Source: Spirochaetia bacterium
GTDB lineage: Bacteria > Spirochaetota > Spirochaetia > DSM-2461
Assembly: GCA_963666985.2 (NCBI GenBank)
Contig: CAXXIA010000001.1
Location: forward strand, 1,248,001 to 1,312,000
DNA: 64,000 nucleotides
Direction: 5' to 3'
In this document: positions 15,236 to 30,546 of the stretch, piece by piece
Layout: every line of letters begins with the position of its first letter
Numbering within the stretch: the stretch's first letter is position 1
Translations under genes and position numbers: made by a program
Notes under the pieces: generated by a model
Databases searched by the model: none
What the model was told of the DNA's origin: nothing
The model's input: the letters and a program-made list of their open reading frames with translations, nothing else

Positions 15236-17200
15236 TTAATCCAAGCCGCTGAGATACCCCATCGCCTCGTTTTCGGCATCCCGAACGTACTTCATCAAAT
15301 CCTCGTCCGAAAGAGCCGAAAATTCTCCAATTGTCGATGACGCATCAGAATCCACGTCTTTCTCGTAGCGCACATAGGTGGTCTGATAGAACGCCAGCCG
15401 CTTTTCCGGGTGGATTCCGAAAGAAAGAATCGTTCCCGCTCCTTCACGAAGAAGACACATCTTCTCCCGAAGATCTTCTTCGGATTCCACCGACCAAACG
15501 CCGAGATAGATGGGATTATCGTCGTTGTTCACATCCCCGACGAACTCGCCTCTGAGCATCGTGGACCTCACTCCGCCGAGATAAGGCACGAAATCAAGAT
15601 GCTCGGCCAGTTTTCTGTCCGTGGCCAGGAATCTGCCGTCCGCCGGATTCAATGTAAAGATGATAACATTATCAACCGCTTGGCCGTAACTCTTAAAGAG
15701 TGCGCCGGAATACTCATCCAGGTCGATGCACGAAGACAATTCATTATATCGAATGCAGATACGTCTCGCCATCGTCGAAAGCCATGAATTGAGCGCACGA
15801 TGCTCACCTTTCCATTCGCTCACGCGCCTTTCGAATTCCTCTTCGGAAATATTTCCCTGAAAATAGGCCAGGATTTCACGATAAAGATCTCTGATGTTAT
15901 AATGGCGGCTGAAACGTTCAAGGAGTTCAAATAGAAAGATCTCTTTTTGCCGCAAACGCCATATTTCGGCTATCACGTCGGTTCGACTGGAAGATTCGCT
16001 GATTTCCAACTCCTCCTGCAGTCCCTGAAGAACATGAAATTGTCTTTGAAGAGCCGAAAAACTCTTGGTAAGTCCCGAGGCAGACCGTTCAAAACGAATA
16101 CTCCATTCGGTTCCGACGCCTACCGTGCTTTTTATGCTGAGCATCTCGGGGCCGAAAACGGTCCAAACCTGCATGGTTCCGAAACCCTCGCCTTTACCGT
16201 CGGCTTTTGTCGATTTTCCAATAAAAGCGGGTTTCCCTTCGGAATCGAGCTCCAGAAGTTCGGGCGGTATCCCGGTTCCATTATCCGCGATACGCAGAAC
16301 GACATGCGTCCGCTCTTCATCTTCCAAAGCGATATACAATCGCGGATCTCTGCCTGTTTCCGACATGGCGTCGATGGCGTTCGAGGTAAGGTTTACCAGA
16401 GCGCGGCTGATATTCAGCCAATGCCCCAAAACCGTCGGTTTTGCCGCGGAAAACACGATGGTCAACTCAATGTTCCCCGGCGCCGCTTCCACATAGGGAA
16501 TCAGACGATCTCTGATTAAATCTTTAAGATTCACCTCATGGGCCATGGCCATGGAATCCCTATAGGAATTCAGCATACTCATTAAGGTTGTTGTTTCGCG
16601 GTTGATGTCCTCGATGATTCGGCCGGCGTTTTCCGGAGCCAAAGCATTCACCATGGCCATCAGAGAACTTAAGGTCTTCCGGGCGTCGTGGCGGGTTCGG
16701 CCAATCTCATCCTCGGCGGGAGGTTTGTGTTCGATGGTACCGATGTGTTCCAAAATCTGTGATTTATACGCCGACAATCGGTGATAGACCATATTTCGAT
16801 ACACGATACTCTCTTCGGGGCCGAAACCTTTATGCCCGAAAAAATCAACCGTATCGTGCTGTCTTTCCCAGACATAAAGATAAACAATGGAATCATCGGG
16901 AATATGCTCGGCCAAATAAGCGATGAAGGCCGTTCCGATGCCGCGGCCGCGGCCGTAAGGACTCGTTACGATTTTATAAATAAGATATTCACTTTCATCG
17001 CCGGAGACATAGGTAAGGATATAGCCGAGGATTTCACCTTCCTCAATCCACACATAACTGTGATCGAAATCCTGCCGCATCGTAGGTTCTTTAATATAGG
17101 GAGAGGGAATTATAAAGGTATCGATATTCAAAAGAGGATTTATTTTAATTCGTTCCTCAACCGCCGGTGTGAGGGGGTAAATCGCCTTTGTTTCGGCCAT
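15236..17200 (-). CDS. GNAT acetyltransferase - histidine kinase fusion with unknown C-terminal domain
   Basis: GNAT motif A VTSPYGRGRGIG; H-box-like RHDARKTLSSL; N-box ALVNLTSNAIDA; G1 IADNGTGIP; G2 STK--GKGEGFG; no TM segment. Confidence 0.8.
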   Translation of the reverse strand: MAETKAIYPLTPAVEERIKINPLLNIDTFIIPSPYIKEPTMRQDFDHSYVWIEEGEILGYILTYVSGDESEYLIYKIVTSPYGRGRGIGTAFIAYLAEHIPDDSIVYLYVWERQHDTVDFFGHKGFGPEESIVYRNMVYHRLSAYKSQILEHIGTIEHKPPAEDEIGRTRHDARKTLSSLMAMVNALAPENAGRIIEDINRETTTLMSMLNSYRDSMAMAHEVNLKDLIRDRLIPYVEAAPGNIELTIVFSAAKPTVLGHWLNISRALVNLTSNAIDAMSETGRDPRLYIALEDEERTHVVLRIADNGTGIPPELLELDSEGKPAFIGKSTKADGKGEGFGTMQVWTVFGPEMLSIKSTVGVGTEWSIRFERSASGLTKSFSALQRQFHVLQGLQEELEISESSSRTDVIAEIWRLRQKEIFLFELLERFSRHYNIRDLYREILAYFQGNISEEEFERRVSEWKGEHRALNSWLSTMARRICIRYNELSSCIDLDEYSGALFKSYGQAVDNVIIFTLNPADGRFLATDRKLAEHLDFVPYLGGVRSTMLRGEFVGDVNNDDNPIYLGVWSVESEEDLREKMCLLREGAGTILSFGIHPEKRLAFYQTTYVRYEKDVDSDASSTIGEFSALSDEDLMKYVRDAENEAMGYLSGLD

Positions 17201-17350
17201 GAGGTAAGTCTACCCCGAAGTTGAACACCATGCACGAGCGGATTATTCGATTCCAAATCTTTTATAAACGGATTCGGCCTCGCTAAGTCTTCCTTACGCC
17301 CCGATGGGACTTAAAACCGTCCTCGCTCTTTTATGCAGGTTCATGACACC

Positions 17351-18967
17351 TCATGATCCATTCAGCATCTTGAAGTTCTTTTTATTCGAAGCGTAAAGAC
17401 TTTTAAAAACCCGATAGTTTTTCCTATAAGCGTCTTTCAAAGAAGCATCCGGTTTGAAAGTATCTTCGGTTTCAAGATAATCGGCGGCATGTTCCAGACT
17501 CTCTATGGCGCCAAGCCCCACGCCCATGGTAATCGCCGCCCCGGCGGACCCCGCATGCCTAGGATCGGTCAAACGTCTGACCGGACGTTCCAGAATGTCC
17601 GAAAGCATCTGGGCTATAACGGGCGAAAGCGCTCCTCCGCCGACAAAGGCGATTTCACCCGATACGGGGAAACTCGCTTCGATAGACTCGAAAAGCCACT
17701 TTTGATGAAAGATGATTCCTTCGACAACAGCTCTGACCATGGCGCTCTTTCCGGTATCCAGAGAAAGATTAAAAAAGAGTCCCCGAGCGGCCGGATCCTC
17801 AAAAGGAGCCCGATTCCCGTGAAGCCAGGGTGTAAAAATCACCCCCTCGGCTCCCGCCGGAACCGTGCCGATCGTATCGATGAGAAAGTCATAAAGATTT
17901 TCATAAGCCGATTCGGGTCCGATTGCCGGATGCGATCCCAAATAAAGATCTATTTCATCCAAAGCCAGATGATCCCGAACCCATTCCAAACATTTTCCGG
18001 CGGTCTCCTGCTCGGCGAAATACAGGTATCGGTCGTGCTGAGCGCCGGTTATGGAGGCTATACGCCGACCCACGTCAACCTTGAATCGATCCACGGTTAA
18101 AGAAACCCAGCCCGATGTTCCCGTATAAACATAGGCATCACCTGTGCGTGTGGCGCCCGCTCCCACACTGATCATGGAAGCATCCCCGCCCCCGCCGAAT
18201 ACCGGCGTTCCGGGAAGCAAACCCAGTTCCGAAGCGGCCTCGGAAGTTAATCCACCCACCCTATCGGTGGAAGCGACAATCTTCGGCATATGCTTAGGGT
18301 TCACCCCGTACATTTTCAGCAAAGCCGGACTCCACGCGCGATGATTCGCCTTCTTGGCGGTAAGAAAAGTCGCGAAAGCCGAATCGGCCGTCATGGTGCA
18401 GATGCCGGTGGCACGAGCGATAAGATAATCCTTCACATCGAACCACTTGTAGGTCTCGGCGAACACCTCCGGCTCGTTTTCTTTTACCCAGAGGTACTTC
18501 CAAACAGGATCTTTCACGCTGGCGGAAATCGCGCCGTTGATGATCAAGCTTTTCATCAATTTGGGGGCGTTCATGCCCTCGATCCGCAGCCCCCGTTCCA
18601 GAATCCGAGCTTTCTGATTACCCGAACGCTGATCCATATAGCTCATGGCCGGCCGCAGAGCCTTCAAATCCTTATCCACCAGGACAAGCCCCTGCATCTG
18701 GGCACTGAAGGAAATCCCGGCTATGGGAAGCCCTCCCGTTCGTTCCATAACGGTCCGCGTCGTCTCGGACATGGCGCGCCACCAGTCGTCGGGATTCTGT
18801 TCGATGCCGTTACTTCCGACACTTATGAGTTCATACTCGGCAAGCTCGCCGTCAATAAAGGTCAGTCTGTCGTCCAGCCGGTAAAGACAGGTTTTACAGC
18901 CTGTCGATCCGATGTCATAACTCATCAGGAACAGAGGTTCCGCGCGCTTTTCCATGGAGCCGTTCAT
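17351..18967 (-). CDS. FGGY-family carbohydrate kinase (xylulokinase/fuculokinase-like)
   Basis: YDIGSTGCKT, EQNPDDWW, ISFSAQMQG, GGGD, YTGTSGW, PWLHGNRAP, VGGGA. Confidence 0.92.
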   Translation of the reverse strand: MNGSMEKRAEPLFLMSYDIGSTGCKTCLYRLDDRLTFIDGELAEYELISVGSNGIEQNPDDWWRAMSETTRTVMERTGGLPIAGISFSAQMQGLVLVDKDLKALRPAMSYMDQRSGNQKARILERGLRIEGMNAPKLMKSLIINGAISASVKDPVWKYLWVKENEPEVFAETYKWFDVKDYLIARATGICTMTADSAFATFLTAKKANHRAWSPALLKMYGVNPKHMPKIVASTDRVGGLTSEAASELGLLPGTPVFGGGGDASMISVGAGATRTGDAYVYTGTSGWVSLTVDRFKVDVGRRIASITGAQHDRYLYFAEQETAGKCLEWVRDHLALDEIDLYLGSHPAIGPESAYENLYDFLIDTIGTVPAGAEGVIFTPWLHGNRAPFEDPAARGLFFNLSLDTGKSAMVRAVVEGIIFHQKWLFESIEASFPVSGEIAFVGGGALSPVIAQMLSDILERPVRRLTDPRHAGSAGAAITMGVGLGAIESLEHAADYLETEDTFKPDASLKDAYRKNYRVFKSLYASNKKNFKMLNGS

Positions 18968-19632
18968 CCGATAATCCCCAGTGCCCGGCGAAGAAACGCA
19001 ACCATTTGTTCTTTCAGAAACGCTTCATCCGATGCTTTTTCTTTTCCAAGATAAATTTCCATCCGGTCCTTCCAATATTCGGAACTTAAAGAAAACTGGA
19101 GAGTCAAAAACAGATTGTCCATAAAAAACGCGGACATTTTTTCATCGCAAAACGACTCTATAAGATTTTCTTCTCTCGCCTGACTTAAAAGCGACGAATA
19201 AGCGTCCGCCGTAATGGTTTCCAGGCGGCCTGCGAGACTCCGGGCCAATTCACTGTTGCTCTCCGATGTAAACCGACAGTAAAGACGGTTCATCAGAGGA
19301 TAGATTCGCGTCGCTTCGAAAACAGCATCAACGATTCCGGAGATTTTGCCGACCAGGGACAAATCCGAAGACAAAATGGGACCTAAAGCTTTGTCGATCA
19401 GAGTAAATCCCCGATTCACAACCTCAAGGTAAAGATGCTTTTTGGATTCGAAGTATTTATAAAGAGATCCGACGCTCACACCCGCATTCTCCGCGATGAT
19501 GTTGATGTTGGCCGCGGAAAATCCTTTGTCGGCGAATTCTTCGGCCGCCGCATTTAAGATTCTGATCTGTTTTTCCTCGTCGATTCGTTCAAAAACATCT
19601 TTATGAAAAATCCGGATTTCATCCACACTCAT
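18964..19632 (-). CDS. TetR/AcrR-family transcriptional regulator
   Basis: ILNAAAEEFADKGFSAANINIIAENAGVSVGSLYKYFESK HTH. Confidence 0.93.
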   Translation of the reverse strand: MSVDEIRIFHKDVFERIDEEKQIRILNAAAEEFADKGFSAANINIIAENAGVSVGSLYKYFESKKHLYLEVVNRGFTLIDKALGPILSSDLSLVGKISGIVDAVFEATRIYPLMNRLYCRFTSESNSELARSLAGRLETITADAYSSLLSQAREENLIESFCDEKMSAFFMDNLFLTLQFSLSSEYWKDRMEIYLGKEKASDEAFLKEQMVAFLRRALGIIG

Positions 19633-20799
19633 TTAAGCCGCCTTTTTGCTGTACTTCATCAAATAAATGAGCCTCATCATCCGGCTTTCAACGGGGCTGA
19701 TGCGGCGGCCCGAACCGAGAATCGCCGTTTCAACGGCGGCACGGCATCCCTTTTCGGCCACAAGCCCCACGGCCCGAGAATCCGATTCGCTTTCGCCTAT
19801 GCAAATACAGCCCAATCCCTGAACAAGGACGGCGCTGCGGCGCTTTAAGATTTTCAAAATACGGCCCTCATCGTTTCCATTTCCTATTTCCGCTACGGGA
19901 AGAGAAGGACCGATCAGCTGAGCAAAATCATCAAGATAAGGTTTAACGGTTCCTCCGCGCCAAGATGCGGCCAGAACATACGGCGTTTTGGTGGTCGATA
20001 CAACCGTTCCAGGCAGATTTTTCCGAATGGTGTCCAAGAGTCCTTCGACGGCCGTTTCATCCAAAAGCGACTTATTCGCCGGCACCCCCGTAAACGTTTC
20101 GAGCGCCCTTGAACGGATCATTTCCTCATCTTCGCCGAATTCGCTCTCTGACTCAGACGCACCGATCCGCTTCCGAAAACCTGCGATGATTACTTTCTCC
20201 GCCGCGTTCTCCAGTTCCATCGCCGTCAGCAGAGCCTGCTCGATATCAACGCCGAAACAGACGGTACCATGATTGGAAAGAAGCAAAGCCTTGATGTCCT
20301 CGCCCTTTTTCCCGATGGTTTTCTCCACGGCTTTGGCCAATTTTTTCGTCGTCGGAAGAGCATAAGGCACGCACGGAACCGAAGAGCCGGGCCCGAAACC
20401 TGTTAAGGCCGTCATCTTATCGGCCCCCTCGTCTTGTACGCCTTCGGTTCTTTTACCGGCCGGCACCGTGAATCCTTTCCTCGCCGCGGAAAGAGAAGAG
20501 GCGGCCGGCTGATGGGTATGAACCACCGCGCCCACATCGGATCTGTTCCGATACACCCGAGCGTGAAGTTCCTTTTCGGAGGAAGGTTTCAGCAGTCCTT
20601 CCCAAGATAAATCCTCTAAGCGAACAATCGCCAAATCCTCCGGTGCCAGCGTTTCGTAATTTCGCCCCGACGGCGTGATGAGAAAGCGCTCCGCATCCAG
20701 ACGGATGCTCAAGTTTCCCCAGGTCCGGGCCACGAGCCCTTTGCTCAGGAGTTCCTTACCGGCCCGAACCAGCACCTCGCGCTGTGCGGTGAATTCCAT
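19633..20799 (-). CDS. Class II aldolase/adducin family protein (active N-domain plus degenerate second domain)
   Basis: TWGNLS, ITPSG, PSSE--LH, VHTH, LLSNHG (Zn ligands intact); second domain PYLDDFAQLIG lacks the His ligands. Confidence 0.9.
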   Translation of the reverse strand: MEFTAQREVLVRAGKELLSKGLVARTWGNLSIRLDAERFLITPSGRNYETLAPEDLAIVRLEDLSWEGLLKPSSEKELHARVYRNRSDVGAVVHTHQPAASSLSAARKGFTVPAGKRTEGVQDEGADKMTALTGFGPGSSVPCVPYALPTTKKLAKAVEKTIGKKGEDIKALLLSNHGTVCFGVDIEQALLTAMELENAAEKVIIAGFRKRIGASESESEFGEDEEMIRSRALETFTGVPANKSLLDETAVEGLLDTIRKNLPGTVVSTTKTPYVLAASWRGGTVKPYLDDFAQLIGPSLPVAEIGNGNDEGRILKILKRRSAVLVQGLGCICIGESESDSRAVGLVAEKGCRAAVETAILGSGRRISPVESRMMRLIYLMKYSKKAA

Positions 20800-22367
20800 C
20801 AGCGAGATCCTCCGTCGGAGCTGCGGGAAGCACCGGAGAGAACATCGTCCGCCGCTTTGGACGTTCCAGCCGCAGCAAACGCCGCGGCGCAGGCGGCGGC
20901 ATCCACGCCTTCGACATTCCGGAACACCCGCTCGAATCGTACAAGCGCCTCATCGATAATCTCATCCGTATCCGCCGCGCTGGTATACAGCCTGCTGCCG
21001 GCCAGAGTCACGATTCCTTCGGCCATGTACGCGGCGCCCATTTCCTCCATAGCGCGTTTTCGGCGATGGGCCTCGGAGATAACGCCTTTTATGGTCCAGA
21101 ATTTCGTAAAATCAATCTTGGCCAGCATCGTGGCCACCGTCTCCAGATGGCAGATAGACCCCTGATTGAACGCCACGAAGGGCAAATCATATTTCTTTAT
21201 CAGCTTCCGCAGTCCGGCGGTCAGCCGATCACCGGCGGCTCCGGCCTTGGCGCAGGCATTGGTCTCGGCAATAGCCTTGAGCGTCCAGTAACCGGCCGCG
21301 GAACTTAAAGGATTCGCCGCCATGGTTCCTCCCACCAGGGCTTTCTTCTGACCGCCGCCCTTAATCCCCGCGGCCAAGAATCTCATGTATTCGTCTTTTC
21401 CGCCCAAACCGCCCGCCGACGGATATCCGCCCGCGACGACCTTGCCGAACACCGTCAAATCGGGCACAACGCCGAAAAATCCCTGAGCCCCGCTCATGCC
21501 CACGCGGAAAGCGGTCACCACCTCATCGAAAATCAAAAGAGCCCCGTATCGATCGCAAAGAGATCTCACCCCCGCGTTGAAATCAAAATCCAGCGGACGC
21601 GTTCCGCTCTCGGGCCCCAAAGGCTCAATCAGCACCGCCGCGGTTCCTCCGCGCAGCGTGTTCCGGCGAAGCACCCGCTCCAGGCTTCCCAAATCGTTGG
21701 GAGCAAACTCCTGCGTATTTTTGAAAATCCGCGCGGGAACGCCCTTGGCCTCAAAATGACGCGAACCGGCAAGACGAATACCGTAAGCCAGCTGATCGCT
21801 CCAGCCGTGATACGCCCCGCCCATTTTCACGATGTTTTTCTTTTTCGTCGCGAGTCTGGCCACGCGGATCGCGGCCATGCAGGATTCGGTTCCGCTGCCC
21901 AGCATCCGAAACTTATCCACGCTCGGAACATGCTTAATAATCATCTCGGCCAGCTTCATCTCATACTCATGGAAAAGCCCCGTGGACGGTCCGGTCGTTT
22001 CCAGAAGCTCCTTCACCTTGGCCAGAATCTCCGGCGGATTGCTTCCGAGCACCGTCGGCCCCCCGGCCTGAAGAAAATCGATGTAGCCATTCCCGTCCAA
22101 ATCCTCCAGATAAGCGCCCTTCGCCTTCGTGAAAACCAAAGGAAAAGGATGATTGAACGCCAAATTGTGCTGAACGCCGCCCGGAATCACATCCATGGCC
22201 CGACCGATCATCTCCTTCGATTTGGAGCATTTCCCCTCGAAATAATCCTTCTCGTATGCTTCGAGAGCATCGCGCCTGATGGACCGAATAGGACTGTTCA
22301 AAAGGGCGAACAGATCCTTATACAAAGGTTTGGTATCGTGATAATTCTTTATAGCGAATTCGTTCAT
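20799..22367 (-). CDS. Class III PLP-dependent aminotransferase (GSA-aminomutase-like fold, not HemL)
   Basis: DLDGNGYIDF, GSGTE, GAYHGWSD, LIFDEVVTAFR, PDLTVFGK (PLP lysine), GT-AANPL. Confidence 0.88.
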   Translation of the reverse strand: MNEFAIKNYHDTKPLYKDLFALLNSPIRSIRRDALEAYEKDYFEGKCSKSKEMIGRAMDVIPGGVQHNLAFNHPFPLVFTKAKGAYLEDLDGNGYIDFLQAGGPTVLGSNPPEILAKVKELLETTGPSTGLFHEYEMKLAEMIIKHVPSVDKFRMLGSGTESCMAAIRVARLATKKKNIVKMGGAYHGWSDQLAYGIRLAGSRHFEAKGVPARIFKNTQEFAPNDLGSLERVLRRNTLRGGTAAVLIEPLGPESGTRPLDFDFNAGVRSLCDRYGALLIFDEVVTAFRVGMSGAQGFFGVVPDLTVFGKVVAGGYPSAGGLGGKDEYMRFLAAGIKGGGQKKALVGGTMAANPLSSAAGYWTLKAIAETNACAKAGAAGDRLTAGLRKLIKKYDLPFVAFNQGSICHLETVATMLAKIDFTKFWTIKGVISEAHRRKRAMEEMGAAYMAEGIVTLAGSRLYTSAADTDEIIDEALVRFERVFRNVEGVDAAACAAAFAAAGTSKAADDVLSGASRSSDGGSR

Positions 22368-22420
22368 GCTTCACTCCTTATTTTTTGCGCCCTTCACTCA
22401 CGCTTGAAGGCCTCAAGCTC

Positions 22421-22442
22421 GGTGAGTGAATACTCACTCATC
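22421..22442. promoter_or_regulatory. Putative TetR operator upstream of the aminotransferase operon
   Basis: TGAGTGAATACTCACTCA (22423-22440), 8 of 9 palindromic pairs, about 55-75 bp upstream of the first ATG. Confidence 0.7.
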
Positions 22443-26630: not shown

Positions 26631-27999
26631 TGAGCGACCAGGACATCCTTTACATTTTAGGTTCAGGACATCGTTTACACAAAACAAGCTTAAACGAAGC
26701 ATTTGAATCCATCAACTGAAGGGAGAAAGGCATAGGTTTTCAAATCAATTTCTCCCAATCTGAGATTGTCAAACCATACGGTGAAGCTCTCATCCTCATT
26801 CTCCCGAAGTCCAACTTGGTATCCTGAAAAGACATAACTGACAAAGACTCTATGCCTGTCGATAGTAACGGCTCCCCGATTATTCACCATTCTCACCAGA
26901 TACCCGGCCGGGTAGATCACCTGAGGGATTCGAGGAGGGAAAGGCCGATTGGACTTTGTGTAAATACTTCCGGGAGTCTGCATTTTGAGAGCTTCATGCG
27001 GACGAACACTGTTGAATTGATTTCTCCAAACATCAAAGTGTGCCTGATGTTCTGAGAGGTTCCCTTGAATCTGTCCCTGCAATTCGCGTTTGATATCGGC
27101 ATGCATTCTTTCATGCCCTCCGTTTTCACAAGGCCTTCCTGGAGTGATGCGATCAAGTTCAATTCCCAAGGCCAGCCACCAAACACTTAAGCGGGTGAGT
27201 CCGAGTAATCCCTTCATGGAAGCAAAGGGTGGTCCGTTATCGGAGCGGATTACCCGAGGGATTCCATAGAGAGAAAAGAGCTTTTCGAACTCTGTTCTAA
27301 CTTCTTGTGTGTCAGCCTTTTGGAGAGCTTTGATGGTGAAGATGTATTTGGAGTATTCATCCCGAACCGTCAGAGGTTCACACTTTTCATTATCGGGAGT
27401 GTACCACCATCCTTTGAAGTCGACCGTCCAGATATCATTAGGGGCTTTGGCCTGCAGATGTGTTTGGATTCGGCTGCCTTTGGTCTGCTGCCGTTTCTTT
27501 CGATGATGAACCAGTCCTGCTTTATCAAGGATGCGTTTGACGGTGGTGAGGCTTGGGGGATTATTATGAGGATGGGTCTTCTGGTAGATCTCGAGAATCT
27601 TTTTTGGCCCCCAGCTGGAGTTGTGCAACGTCTTGATCCGGATAATACCGCATATAACGTCTTCAGGCGTTTGGTTGGGGCTGCTGCGAGGTCTACGGGG
27701 TCGTTCCTTCAACCCGGCGAGCCCTTCCTGGATAAACCGGTTTTTCCATTTAAGGCCTGTCGGCCGGGAGATCCCGTACTCAGCACAGAGGTCTTTCATA
27801 CAGACATGGGGATCCATGGCCTTGAGGGCGAACTCGAATTTGACGTCCATAATATTGGTCTCCTTCCACGGCATAACCAGCACCTCGATAAGGGAAAGTG
27901 CTGATCATTTTAGTTCTTGTCGTGTAAAGGATGTCCTGGTACTCTCGTGTAAAGGATGTCCTGGTACTCTCGTGTAAACGATGTCCTGAACCCGTACCA
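26631..27999 (-). mobile_element. IS481-family insertion sequence
   Basis: TG...CA ends, TTA target duplication (26628-26630 / 28000-28002; ATTA if the end is drawn 1 nt shorter), 25-bp-period subterminal repeats containing TGTAAA(G/C)GATGTCCTG (three at the right end, two inverted at the left). Confidence 0.92.
26690..27874 (-). CDS. IS481-family DDE transposase
   Basis: MPWKET start, HTH, W--DFKG, D-YS, SDNG-PF, P--NG-HERMH. Confidence 0.95.
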   Translation of the reverse strand: MPWKETNIMDVKFEFALKAMDPHVCMKDLCAEYGISRPTGLKWKNRFIQEGLAGLKERPRRPRSSPNQTPEDVICGIIRIKTLHNSSWGPKKILEIYQKTHPHNNPPSLTTVKRILDKAGLVHHRKKRQQTKGSRIQTHLQAKAPNDIWTVDFKGWWYTPDNEKCEPLTVRDEYSKYIFTIKALQKADTQEVRTEFEKLFSLYGIPRVIRSDNGPPFASMKGLLGLTRLSVWWLALGIELDRITPGRPCENGGHERMHADIKRELQGQIQGNLSEHQAHFDVWRNQFNSVRPHEALKMQTPGSIYTKSNRPFPPRIPQVIYPAGYLVRMVNNRGAVTIDRHRVFVSYVFSGYQVGLRENEDESFTVWFDNLRLGEIDLKTYAFLPSVDGFKCFV

Positions 28000-28188
28000 T
28001 TAAATCTCATACTCATTCGGCCTTATCTTATAGTCATTCCGTTATTTTTCAATGAATATATCCCGTTATCTCATGAACTTCCGGTAATTCATTGACCGCT
28101 TAATTTTACCGGTAAATAATACGCAGGCTTCGATATGCAGAAGGCCGCGAAGTGAATGATCGGCCGCCGCGCACCCGGGAGGATACAA

Positions 28189-30546
28189 ATGCCGAAAATT
28201 TTCATTGCGTTTCGTTTTCACGTGAATTTCTACCATTCTTACCGGGGAGACGCTCCGGATGAATCGGGAATCGGTAAGGACATCAGGATTATCAGGGGAA
28301 TCCTCGACGATCTGGATCTTCTGAACGGCGAAGGCATTCCGGCAAAAGGAACTTGGGATATTGAAAACCATTATTCGCTCGCCGTCCTCGTGCCGAAACA
28401 TGCGCCCGATATCCTGGAACGCTGGCAATCCAGAGTCGCGAACAGCGGAGATGAAATCGAGGCGATGAGCTGGAACAACGGATTGGTTTCGGCGCAGACG
28501 GAAGAAGAATTCCGCAAAACCATGTCCTGGACCGTCAGCAACCCGGAAGGTTCCGGCCTGTCCGACCTCTTCAGCGAATGGGCGCCCATCGTCCGGCCGC
28601 AGGAATGCATGTTCACCCCGAGTCATCTGCGTCTCTATCCGCAGTTCGGCATCGAATGCGTCAGCCTTTATTACTCCTCGCATCCCTTCAACGGATTCAG
28701 CACCCACATTCCTCTGCTGGAAACAGACCAAAGATACAACCCCCTGACTCTCTCGGCTCCGGGATTCACGGAAACCATGACGCTCCTTCCCTCATGCAAT
28801 CACGGCGATCTGGCCGAAAATCTCGGACTGCGCCCCTGGGTTAAATACCTCCGCAAGAAGCAAAAAGATCGAGATTTCCTGATTCTCATCGACATGGACG
28901 CCGACGATGAGTTCTGGGCCGGATACGGAAAATTGGCAAAGATGATCACGCCGTCGGCAGGCGGACTGCAATCGCTGGTTCGAAGCGTCTGCGATCTGCC
29001 TTATGTCAAATTCTGCCGTCCCTACGATTATGTGAAAAACCACGAACCGGCCGGAAGCATCGAATTCGGTCAGGACACGGCCGACGGCAGCTACGACGGT
29101 CTTTCTTCCTGGGCGGAAAAAAGGGAAAACACGCGGCTGTGGACGCAAATCGCCCGATCCCGCGCCATGGACCGCTGGACACGCGAGTTGATCGGAAAAT
29201 CACAGACGCCCGCCGGCGTCTCCGAGAACCTGGAATCGGCCCTGAAAACACGAATCCTCACGCAAACCACAACCCATTTCGGATTATCCAGCCCCGTAAT
29301 GCATTCCGGACGGCTTAAAGCGGCCGAAGCGATGACCGCCGAGGCCTATGAGTTTTCCCGCAAAGCGCTGGAAGAAGCCGCCGGCGGAACAAACGGTCCG
29401 CCCGAGACTCGGAAAGTTCAAAAAAACGCACAGAGAAAAACGGAAGAAACGCGGAAGATTCAATTCCCGGCGAAAATCAAGTCTGGATTCGCGATTCCCC
29501 TGCCCGATTCCGGCGGAAACTGGCGCCTGACGGAAGGAGCGTCCGCAAAAAAACGGCGCGTCCCCGGCGAATCGCCCCAGCGGATTTCGGGAATCGATTC
29601 TTCCCGAATCCTTGTTTCGGGCCCTTTAAGATTCTCCATCAATCCCAAAGGACGGATCGGATTGTCTCTGCGTGATGTTCCCTGGCTGACAATGCGTCAT
29701 TCCGGTCCGGCTCTTCGATACGCGGGGAAAGAACCCGATTTCGTTCAAACGGATTTCAGACCCCCGATGGTCGTTTCGGAAGGACTGACGCGCATGAGTC
29801 AGAAAATGGAAGCGTCTCTGCCGTCGGCCGACGAACCGGTAATCTGGCATGGTGATTTCTATGCGGCGGACGACGCGCCTTGGATTTTGGCCGATGTCAG
29901 GGTTCGCTACCCCCTGACGCCCGATCGCCCCGGAAACAAGGCCAAAGCGCGCCTTCTGACGCGTTCCTGGGATAAGCGATGGCAGGAGATTCGACCTCTG
30001 GAGCTTGAAGCGCCGTTTAAGATGTCCGACGAAGCTCCGCTTCGAGTCTGGAAGCGCAATTCCTTCGGCGATGTAAGCCGCTTCGATCCGAACGGAGAGC
30101 ATCTTTGGTCCATGAATAATCAGATAACCGATCCCTGGCTGGCCGTTTCGGGAGGCGGAAAGGGACTGCTCATCGGCTGCAGTGTTGTCTCGGAAACCAA
30201 TTTTGCCTTCTGTCCCATCAGAATAACAGGCGGGAGTCACCCCGGTTTCCGTCTGAATCCCTTCGGCACATACTCAGGAGCTCAGCGACGCTATCCCTCA
30301 AAAAGAACGGGTATCGCCTTCTTCCTCTCCTCAAAGATGGCGAGTCATCTCGACTCCTATGCCCCTTCCTACAACGGAGGAGAGCAGCGGATAACAGTGC
30401 TTCTTATCCCGTACGAAGGCGATCGGCCGCCGGAAAAAATCACCTCCGCCGCCGAGACCTTCGGCATGCCGCCCTGGCCGGGATATCTCCCGTGGAAAAA
30501 CGGGACCTTCCCCAAGAATCCGACCGGACACGGGAACGGAGAATAA
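28189..30546 (+). CDS. Uncharacterised hydrolase, probable GH57/GH38/deacetylase-type barrel N-domain plus beta-sandwich C-domain
   Basis: ATG 28189 after GGAGG; FRFHVNFYHSYRGD, RPQE, IDMDADDEFW and DGS-DG-SSW motifs reminiscent of GH57-like conserved regions; no signal peptide. Confidence 0.5.
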   Translation: MPKIFIAFRFHVNFYHSYRGDAPDESGIGKDIRIIRGILDDLDLLNGEGIPAKGTWDIENHYSLAVLVPKHAPDILERWQSRVANSGDEIEAMSWNNGLVSAQTEEEFRKTMSWTVSNPEGSGLSDLFSEWAPIVRPQECMFTPSHLRLYPQFGIECVSLYYSSHPFNGFSTHIPLLETDQRYNPLTLSAPGFTETMTLLPSCNHGDLAENLGLRPWVKYLRKKQKDRDFLILIDMDADDEFWAGYGKLAKMITPSAGGLQSLVRSVCDLPYVKFCRPYDYVKNHEPAGSIEFGQDTADGSYDGLSSWAEKRENTRLWTQIARSRAMDRWTRELIGKSQTPAGVSENLESALKTRILTQTTTHFGLSSPVMHSGRLKAAEAMTAEAYEFSRKALEEAAGGTNGPPETRKVQKNAQRKTEETRKIQFPAKIKSGFAIPLPDSGGNWRLTEGASAKKRRVPGESPQRISGIDSSRILVSGPLRFSINPKGRIGLSLRDVPWLTMRHSGPALRYAGKEPDFVQTDFRPPMVVSEGLTRMSQKMEASLPSADEPVIWHGDFYAADDAPWILADVRVRYPLTPDRPGNKAKARLLTRSWDKRWQEIRPLELEAPFKMSDEAPLRVWKRNSFGDVSRFDPNGEHLWSMNNQITDPWLAVSGGGKGLLIGCSVVSETNFAFCPIRITGGSHPGFRLNPFGTYSGAQRRYPSKRTGIAFFLSSKMASHLDSYAPSYNGGEQRITVLLIPYEGDRPPEKITSAAETFGMPPWPGYLPWKNGTFPKNPTGHGNGE

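Follow-up and report, generated by a model that had tools for sequence, protein, structure and literature searches.

A stretch of 64,000 nucleotides from the genome of a Spirochaetia bacterium (hereafter the window; G000:C1:1248001-1312000) contains, at 17351-22442, four minus-strand genes encoding a class III aminotransferase, a two-domain class II aldolase, a TetR-family repressor and an FGGY kinase, preceded by a palindrome. The four genes are a real, widespread and uncharacterised operon. This operon is probably a TetR-repressed catabolic or detoxifying system for 4-hydroxy sphingoid bases of the phytosphingosine type, which would be converted to dihydroxyacetone phosphate (DHAP) and a fatty aldehyde. 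It is co-regulated and neighbouring lipid-linked genes of other genomes that point to a sphingoid substrate. Positions are those of the window; G000 is the source genome (4.86 Mb, 93% complete), and Gnnn and Lnnn denote the genomes and loci compared with it. The features of the operon are as follows.

22423..22440, strand not assigned: predicted TetR operator TGAGTGA-N4-TCACTCA (sequence, conservation, matrix score)
22374..22378, minus strand: AGGAG, ribosome-binding-site-like, preceding the aminotransferase start (read directly)
20799..22367, minus strand: predicted class III pyridoxal phosphate (PLP) aminotransferase P0001, 522 aa (PF00202, invariant residues, structure model)
19633..20799, minus strand: predicted two-domain class II aldolase P0002, 388 aa (PF00596 twice, invariant columns, fold)
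18964..19632, minus strand: TetR-family repressor P0003, 222 aa, predicted cognate regulator of the operator (PF00440; operator tracks TetR)
17351..18967, minus strand: predicted FGGY kinase P0004, 538 aa, of an unnamed subgroup (FGGY_N/C; below named-kinase cut-offs)

Operon structure and conservation

The coupling of the four genes that had been read from the sequence was confirmed at each junction: TGATG between aminotransferase and aldolase (1-nt overlap at 20799), TAAATG between aldolase and TetR (abutting at 19633/19632) and ATGA between TetR and kinase (overlap 18964-18967). The Pfam families in gene order are Aminotran_3, Aldolase_II in two stretches, TetR_N, and FGGY_N with FGGY_C. 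Misassembly does not account for the fused aldolase frame, because contigs from a second study (runs X3 and X4 of one sample, about 97-98% identical) span 17300-20872, that is, the kinase, TetR and fused aldolase genes, continuously and without gaps; these contigs end within the low-complexity tail of the aminotransferase. A further run, X1, does not count as independent, as it may itself have yielded the DNA of the window. A promoter and terminator scan of the locus gave nothing exceeding shuffled sequence, and no anomaly was seen in its base composition.

Of 592 candidates from species genomes, at least 547 were relatives of P0001, as were at least 589 of 598 from metagenome records. Near the source genome the distribution is patchy (4 of 31 relatives, G000 included); in one clostridial order, 44 of 301 genomes are carriers, as are 57 of the 114 Leptospiraceae. 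The first 80 loci were observed to contain the aldolase in 69, the kinase in 45 and TetR in 34 cases, and 100 further loci in 84, 76 and 36 cases, respectively, the kinase of the latter being counted at E<=1e-5 with possibly a few non-cognate matches included. Where at least 4 kb was available on both sides, the aldolase was present at 43/51 and the kinase at 33/51 loci from genomes, and at 48/50 and 41/50 loci of the second set. Acutalibacteraceae that have no adjacent kinase gene hold a 51-53% identical ortholog elsewhere (4/4 genomes tested). The three enzymes are therefore co-conserved across several phyla, as the original prediction required, and its remark that an aminotransferase stands where an isomerase would be expected also holds, since a scan of the recurring neighbour families revealed no isomerase, nor is one encoded by the four genes. 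Five Leptospira loci (L004, L005, L006, L009 and L016) show a different arrangement, in which no aldolase lies in the locus, the kinase is followed by APH-like and GlpD-like genes, and a divergent gene of the major facilitator superfamily (MFS) stands under a second operator.

Catalytic features of the three enzymes

P0001 matches PF00202 at 181.9 bits (cut-off 30.5), and its family is unusually conserved, with 58-88% identity over 69 aligned sequences, in all of which K309, D281, E248, Y186-H187-G188 and R459 are invariant. An Arg such as R459 is expected in enzymes that bind a 2-oxo acid. The structure model (mean predicted local distance difference test, pLDDT, 86) has D-phenylglycine aminotransferase (D-PhgAT) and glutamate-1-semialdehyde aminomutase (GSAM) as its best folds, at about 31% identity, and the closest named relatives are from Spirochaetales. 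Family-specific parts are the N-terminal helices (1-46) and an insertion at 410-449; the Ala-rich, low-complexity tail (491-522, at 20799-20895) has a pLDDT below 50, is mostly missing in relatives and varies between strains. Alignments bore out the earlier observation that PGGVQHNLAF, at residues 62-71, takes the place of the HemL motif PGGVNSPVRAF. GGVQHNL[AS]F is kept in 179/183 loci, and the position of the motif Arg, which has a role in HemL, is a gap. P0001 also falls under both curated NCBIfam hemL cut-offs (291.6 vs 398 and 267 vs 527.3 bits), and glutamyl-tRNA reductase (hemA, PF05201) had no match in G000, G006, G014 or G065, although it is present in G016. On these sequence criteria P0001 is a class III PLP aminotransferase and not HemL, as had been suspected. 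A second copy of the aminotransferase, about 60% identical, is found in five Leptospiraceae (G041, G865, G868, G873 and G874).

Domain 1 of P0002 carries the catalytic set N29, S73, E75, H94, H96 and H177. These residues, together with T42-G45, are invariant in 27 fused sequences, and in domain 1 only. Domain 2 is a pseudo-aldolase, in which the catalytic residues are lost and LDDxAQ and a C-terminal YxxKY helix are kept. The FucA-type phosphate pocket and Glu are retained (N29, T42-P-S-G, S73-S74-E75), E75 being aligned with Glu76 of DrdA (6btd), the best solved relative. In a fold search, which took in domain 2 barely, FucA ranked first (Z 25.0, root-mean-square deviation 1.8, 189 aligned residues), followed by AraD (Z 23.8, 2.3, 196) and RhaD (Z 18.3). 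P0002 reaches 85.7 bits against the fucA equivalog (cut-off 400), and AraD is its top NCBIfam match, also below cut-off. The active site of class II aldolases lies between subunits. Of 183 loci, 99 have the fused form, 20 a single domain that contains both parts and 19 two separate genes (the split form is also that of the genus-mate G006); in 18 only domain 1 was seen, and in 27 no aldolase was seen. This occurrence of fused, single-domain and split forms suggests that an ancestral subunit separated into two halves, one catalytic and one acting as the neighbour.

P0004 stays below the curated cut-offs of XylB (TIGR01312; 268 vs 380 bits), FucK (96 vs 471) and RhaB (18 vs 528). Compared with E. 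coli XylB (2itm), it has QMQG for QMHG and GDA for GDN, Gln and Ala thus replacing the His and Asn of the XylB sugar site. A consensus of 76 orthologs, set against 7 paralogs of the source genome, showed that P0004 forms a conserved group of its own, with a group-specific hydrophobic segment at about 126-150. By these sequence criteria the kinase is not an ordinary xylulokinase, in agreement with what had been anticipated.

The TetR regulator, its operator and remote sites

The palindrome TGAGTGA-N4-TCACTCA lies 56 bases 5' of the first start codon. By shape it is unremarkable, because ten 7-N4-7 palindromes of such form occur within the window; it is conservation that makes it real. The operator is conserved before module genes (those of the operon and their counterparts at other loci) in Leptospira, spirochaetes and Clostridia, and was found at 6/6 fetched TetR-bearing loci. 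With a matrix trained on 21 module-adjacent sites, that of the source genome included, the source-genome site scored 29.0 and was the sole position of 15 or more in 4.86 Mb. At held-out metagenome loci, the operator precedes module genes in 16/30 cases with TetR vs 2/50 without TetR, and it was not seen elsewhere in 975 kb. The originally predicted operator is accordingly supported, both by its recurrence at TetR-bearing loci and by its being the one high-scoring site in the source genome. P0003, which reaches no named TetR family, is predicted to be the cognate regulator of this operator, the presence of the two tracking together.

A pattern search of 66 carrier genomes revealed ten remote sites with zero or one mismatch. 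Two of these precede the kinase gene (G032 and G041), one an MFS gene (G006) and one a gene for a class 3 aldehyde dehydrogenase (ALDH; G040, score 24.8). In G081, which has the cognate TetR (43% identical), a perfect operator precedes a neutral ceramidase gene (545 bits) by about 1 kb. Sites with two mismatches were observed in G081, between the cognate TetR gene and an operon encoding an SCP2-like protein, a second aminotransferase and a transketolase, and in G040, before an SCP2-like/second aminotransferase pair; most of the other two-mismatch remote sites examined looked like chance. The SCP2/aminotransferase/transketolase operon includes a second TetR copy in G154 and is divergent from the module in 18/183 loci, mostly of one gut lineage. 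A further two-mismatch site, a weak one (12.6) in G039, precedes KdsR-like and serine palmitoyltransferase (SPT)-like genes, named after their best families, both below the cut-off. At G000:C1:26083-27315 the source genome encodes a protein more distantly related (36%) to the second aminotransferase, without SCP2 or transketolase neighbours.

Transporter, aldehyde dehydrogenase and lipid-linked genes

The recurring partners across the 183 loci are an MFS protein (25), a GtrA-like protein (24) and a class 3 ALDH (ALDH3-type; 7), the last not being a lactaldehyde dehydrogenase. The only solved relatives of the partner MFS at E<=0.001 are the human choline/ethanolamine transporters FLVCR1/2, whose Trp and two Gln are reported to bind the amine and hydroxyl of the substrate (PMC11168923). 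The equivalents of W102, Q191, Q447 and F324 are kept in the partner MFS, and that of Y325 is not. Operator sites precede the MFS gene in Leptospira and G006, and the source genome has a 64% ortholog remote from the operon (G000:C2:684735-686045). The original argument that a lipid substrate is favoured by the lack of a sugar transporter thus fails, as a dedicated FLVCR-like MFS exists; judged by its sequence, this protein would favour an amino-alcohol substrate.

An endoglycoceramidase-like GH5 gene, so labelled because its best solved relatives are endoglycoceramidases, lies near module genes in three lineages. The first, a Bacteroidales lineage that also has SusC/D there, comprises L013, L014, L077 and G043; the second is represented by L270, where a sulfatase-family gene and an amidase are present as well, and the third by Leptospira L003. 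Four of 401 Bacteroidota, one of them the genome chosen as centre, carry the aminotransferase, and four have a strong neutral ceramidase, namely 3/3 drawn carriers vs 1/397 others. In 114 Leptospiraceae, a neutral ceramidase is present in 54/57 carriers vs 6/57 non-carriers. The lipid or sphingoid option of the original prediction therefore gains support from regulon and neighbourhood, and its substrate and C1 phosphorylation are still proposals; the ceramidase and aldehyde dehydrogenase links that its neighbourhood analysis was meant to find exist in other genomes, as do links to endoglycoceramidase-like genes, whereas the source genome contains no true neutral ceramidase.

An SPT-like gene (500 bits or more) was detected in 15/54 chosen carriers, including G000. 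That of G000 lies at G000:C2:2049600-2055200 (L170:7611-13171), matches SerpalmtaseCFB at 512 bits, below the cut-off of 640, and neighbours genes for three short-chain dehydrogenases/reductases (SDRs), a TetR protein and an open reading frame (ORF) with no NCBIfam match; a role of this cluster in sphingolipid biosynthesis is possible. SPT-like genes (about 494-570 bits) also occur in 95/301 genomes of the clostridial order of G065, several fetched cases adjoining an SDR gene, and sphingolipid synthesis may be common in this order.

Some neighbours that would be compatible with the handling of lipids or aldehydes were each seen at a single locus: an oleate-hydratase (MCRA) family gene after the module (L211:13663-15429), an aldehyde ferredoxin oxidoreductase (L236:3756-5642) and a PAP2 phosphatase (L250:1857-2843). 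At L020:13121-14398, an alanine-racemase-N protein is followed by an ALDH. Atlas look-ups returned only generic TetR and SCP2 leads (10-11% of members).

Proposed pathway

We infer all catalytic steps from what was observed, namely the coupling of the genes, their co-conservation, the catalytic residues, the conserved operator and the kinds of co-regulated genes. The free base would be taken up via the FLVCR-like MFS, or via the GtrA-like protein in many Clostridia. The aminotransferase would pass the C2 amino group to a 2-oxo acid, yielding a (3R,4R)-1,3,4-trihydroxy-2-oxo-alkane, and the FGGY kinase would place a phosphate onto C1, the sole primary hydroxyl; that P0004 phosphorylates C1 of the ketose we infer only from the aldolase partner. 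The FucA-type aldolase would then cut between C3 and C4 to give DHAP and a fatty aldehyde (pentadecanal from a C18 base), its degenerate domain 2 supplying the neighbour-subunit half of the active site, and the class 3 ALDH would oxidise the aldehyde. The base or its keto product is proposed to free TetR from the operator. The cell would thereby gain nitrogen and DHAP and dispose of an antimicrobial lipid, the tail often being left unburned. The beta-oxidation marker PF00725 was found in G000 and G040 and was missing in G006, G014 and G016, so that burning of the fatty tail is not general.

FucA/DrdA-type aldolases are reported to act on (3R,4R) ketose 1-phosphates (PMC6079011). By our own Cahn-Ingold-Prelog assignment, the ketone from D-ribo-phytosphingosine would be (3R,4R), that is, 5-deoxyribulose with a long tail. 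Similar stereochemical reasoning indicates that D-glucosaminitol and D-galactosaminitol do not fit, because fructose or tagatose would result, with the wrong configuration. Deamination of a sphingoid-like C2 amine by a class III aminotransferase is known from FumI (PMC3136697). A hydrophobic-moment scan of the three enzymes was uninformative.

More tentatively, and with somewhat less than even confidence, the operon may be one branch of a lyase-independent sphingoid regulon, under one TetR family, in Spirochaetota, Bacillota and Desulfobacterota. Branch A, the operon at 17351-22442, would convert the 4-hydroxy bases of plants and fungi to DHAP and pentadecanal. Bases without a 4-hydroxyl could not be cleaved in this way, which would provide a rationale for the co-regulated second aminotransferase and transketolase. 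In branch B, comprising the SCP2-like carriers and these two enzymes, the C1-C2 unit of such bases would be transferred to an aldose and hexadecanal released; a transketolase of reversed stereopreference would be needed. The FLVCR-like importer would feed both branches, with ceramidase or endoglycoceramidase upstream and ALDH3 downstream.

Weighing of the sphingoid reading and its alternatives

Several observations weigh against the proposed pathway. On the regulatory side, half of the ten remote sites are not at kinase, MFS, ALDH3 or ceramidase genes, three preceding other TetR genes and two being unrelated, and about 1 kb separates the operator of G081 from the start of the ceramidase gene. 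In G071 (L184), G088 (L181) and G043 (L186), palindromes almost identical to the operator stand before unrelated TetR genes, two of them with ABC transporter genes, so that the operator type is common to several TetR families. The site in G039 equals the background of G000, where 8 sites score 12 or more, and no operator was found at 11 other SPT loci. The source genome has no operator at its own MFS, ALDH3 or SPT loci and no second site of 15 or more. The ceramidase co-occurrences are confounded by kinship, since the three Bacteroidota carriers are related (RecA 79-93%) and the Leptospiraceae genomes are close kin, so that the p-values computed for them are overstated; five Bacteroidota carriers of the first set have no neutral ceramidase. 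At E<=1e-20 this enzyme was found in only 13/77 carriers and in none of the Bacillota tested; no true one was found in G000 or the carrier relatives G006, G014 and G016, and none among 248 flanking ORFs searched with Pfam (a subset picked by distance and size). A 51.6-bit ceramidase match in G000 was rejected as a distant hydrolase sitting in a sugar operon. SPT-like genes are not enriched in carriers (10/44 vs 85/257 non-carriers in the one clostridial order, p=0.22); a split by aminotransferase closeness (10/12 of the closest vs 0/32 of the more distant) was post hoc and was discounted. As for the enzymes, the FucA and AraD folds are within 1.2 Z of each other for P0002, no cognate aldolase was found in three Leptospira carriers (G033, G034 and G035) or in G084 (G043 has one), and the nearest solved relatives of P0004 are xylulo- and gluconokinases, enzymes that attach the phosphate at the far end.

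Some of these points would suit a sphingoid substrate with another chemistry or order of steps, which we regard as unlikely but not negligible. The base, possibly sphingosine or sphinganine, would be phosphorylated first, and the PLP enzyme would act on the 1-phosphate by transamination or by phospho-lyase elimination, as the class III enzymes ETNPPL and PHYKPL do, or the class II protein would be an epimerase or dehydratase. The Leptospira carriers that have no cognate aldolase, several loci of this kind having GlpD-like and APH-like genes after the kinase, the near tie of AraD with FucA in fold, the rank of AraD as top NCBIfam match and the oleate-hydratase-family gene of L211 are consistent with such a scheme. 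It is opposed by the retained FucA-type phosphate pocket and Glu, from which the aldolase substrate should still be a 1-phosphate, by the invariance of R459, as expected for 2-oxo-acid binding, and by the sugars and polyols reported as substrates of FGGY kinases (PMC3245297). The same three steps could instead act on a small water-soluble amino-polyol of the 2-amino-2-deoxy-ribitol or L-fucosaminitol type, giving DHAP with glycolaldehyde or lactaldehyde, the lipid neighbours being incidental. This is a rather unlikely substrate class. Stereochemistry alone would fit it too, glycoside hydrolases and GPH-type MFS genes flank some loci, neutral ceramidase is missing in most carriers including the source genome, and the substrates of FLVCR are reported to be small (PMC11168923). 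Against it stand the partner dehydrogenase, which is of class 3 and no lactaldehyde dehydrogenase, and the SCP2 proteins, ceramidase and endoglycoceramidase-like genes that share the operator or the locus. In addition, Leptospira feed on long-chain fatty acids, not sugars, and half of the Leptospiraceae carry the aminotransferase.

Operation of the operon in reverse, in which DHAP and a fatty aldehyde would be condensed and aminated to a sphingoid-like base without SPT, is very improbable. Aldol cleavage and transamination are reversible (for DrdA, see PMC6079011), and 34/44 carriers of the clostridial-order sample have no SPT; the conserved partner is, however, a kinase rather than a phosphatase, co-regulated or adjacent genes encode an importer-like MFS, an ALDH and hydrolases, and the source genome has its own SPT-like cluster. 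Least plausible of all, to the point of being nearly dismissed, is that a divergent HemL, a xylulokinase and a fuculose aldolase are adjacent by chance. Such is the picture given by automatic database names and by the best PDB sequence matches, GSAM and xylulose kinase, but every enzyme is below its curated cut-offs, the Arg of HemL is absent and its motif is replaced by GGVQHNL[AS]F in 179/183 loci. The missing hemA matches in G000, G006, G014 and G065, the tight co-conservation and the shared operator argue in the same direction. Degradation of 4-hydroxy sphingoid bases remains the preferred reading.

Other features of the window

Directly downstream of the kinase gene, a minus-strand gene at 15236-17200 encodes a GNAT domain fused to a histidine-kinase-like ATPase domain, and is syntenic in G006 only. 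At 28156-30546 (plus strand), a 796-aa protein is encoded that matches no Pfam or NCBIfam family and has a 42% identical counterpart in the same gene order in G006. It was found in G006 alone, with no relative in 83 loci; the original prediction had listed this family (as 28189-30546) as a possible partner, but its link is genus-level synteny and the gene stands outside the module. Between this gene and a U32 gene, the source genome has an insertion that is absent in G006. A transposase-like ORF was recognised by inspection at 26690-27883 (minus strand), and a fragment that matches it lies near C2:730000 of the same genome.

Significance and relation to known systems

No published description of the gene set or pathway was found in a full-text literature search covering titles and abstract starts of mostly non-subscription literature. 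In every organism studied by the date of a review (PMC6148460), the exit of sphingolipid metabolism is reported to be sphingosine-1-phosphate (S1P) lyase. If the proposal is correct, the transaminase-kinase-aldolase route would constitute a second exit of defined chemistry, and would account for the disposal of antimicrobial phytosphingosine of plant and fungal origin by bacteria of the gut, rumen, sediment and water. A TetR/operator pair that senses sphingoid bases would be gained, as would a bacterial relative of FLVCR whose substrate can be tested. Many genes now named GSA aminomutase and xylulokinase would need reannotation.

What distinguishes the operon from known systems? The S1P route would share with it the cleavage of a phosphorylated sphingoid backbone to a fatty aldehyde, after sphingosine kinase (PMC6148460). 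S1P lyase uses PLP to cut at C2-C3 and gives phosphoethanolamine, whereas the operon would use PLP for deamination and a metal aldolase to cut at C3-C4, giving DHAP; no S1P-lyase family is among the family matches of the four proteins. Pseudomonas SphR/SphBCD is alike in being a regulated bacterial metabolism of antimicrobial sphingoid bases (PMC11398299). SphC and SphB are predicted to be an oxidoreductase and a cytochrome c, and SphD is predicted to be a PLP aldolase; no enzyme of these types is among the four genes; the regulator there is SphR and here a TetR-family protein, and the product of the SphBC route is reported to be unknown (PMC11398299). FumI, the aminopentol aminotransferase of Sphingopyxis (PDB 6hbs), is likewise a class III enzyme that converts a sphingoid-like C2 amine to a 2-keto lipid with pyruvate, and the available text of its report mentions neither a kinase step nor an aldolase step (PMC3136697). 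It is distant from P0001 (E 2e-24, ranked far below GSAM and D-PhgAT), and its substrate has no C1 hydroxyl. HemL and D-PhgAT share fold and PLP residues with P0001, which lacks the HemL motif and Arg. Closest in logic are the L-fucose/D-arabinose pathway (FucI-FucK-FucA) and 5-deoxyribose salvage (DrdK-DrdI-DrdA), in which a kinase and a metal-dependent class II aldolase also yield DHAP and an aldehyde (PMC6079011). Unlike these, the operon has a class III aminotransferase instead of an isomerase, a kinase far from FucK, a degenerate second aldolase domain, TetR control, a class 3 ALDH and an FLVCR-like transporter. Overall, the operon resembles the fucose and deoxyribose DHAP pathways in logic, yet is not a member of them.

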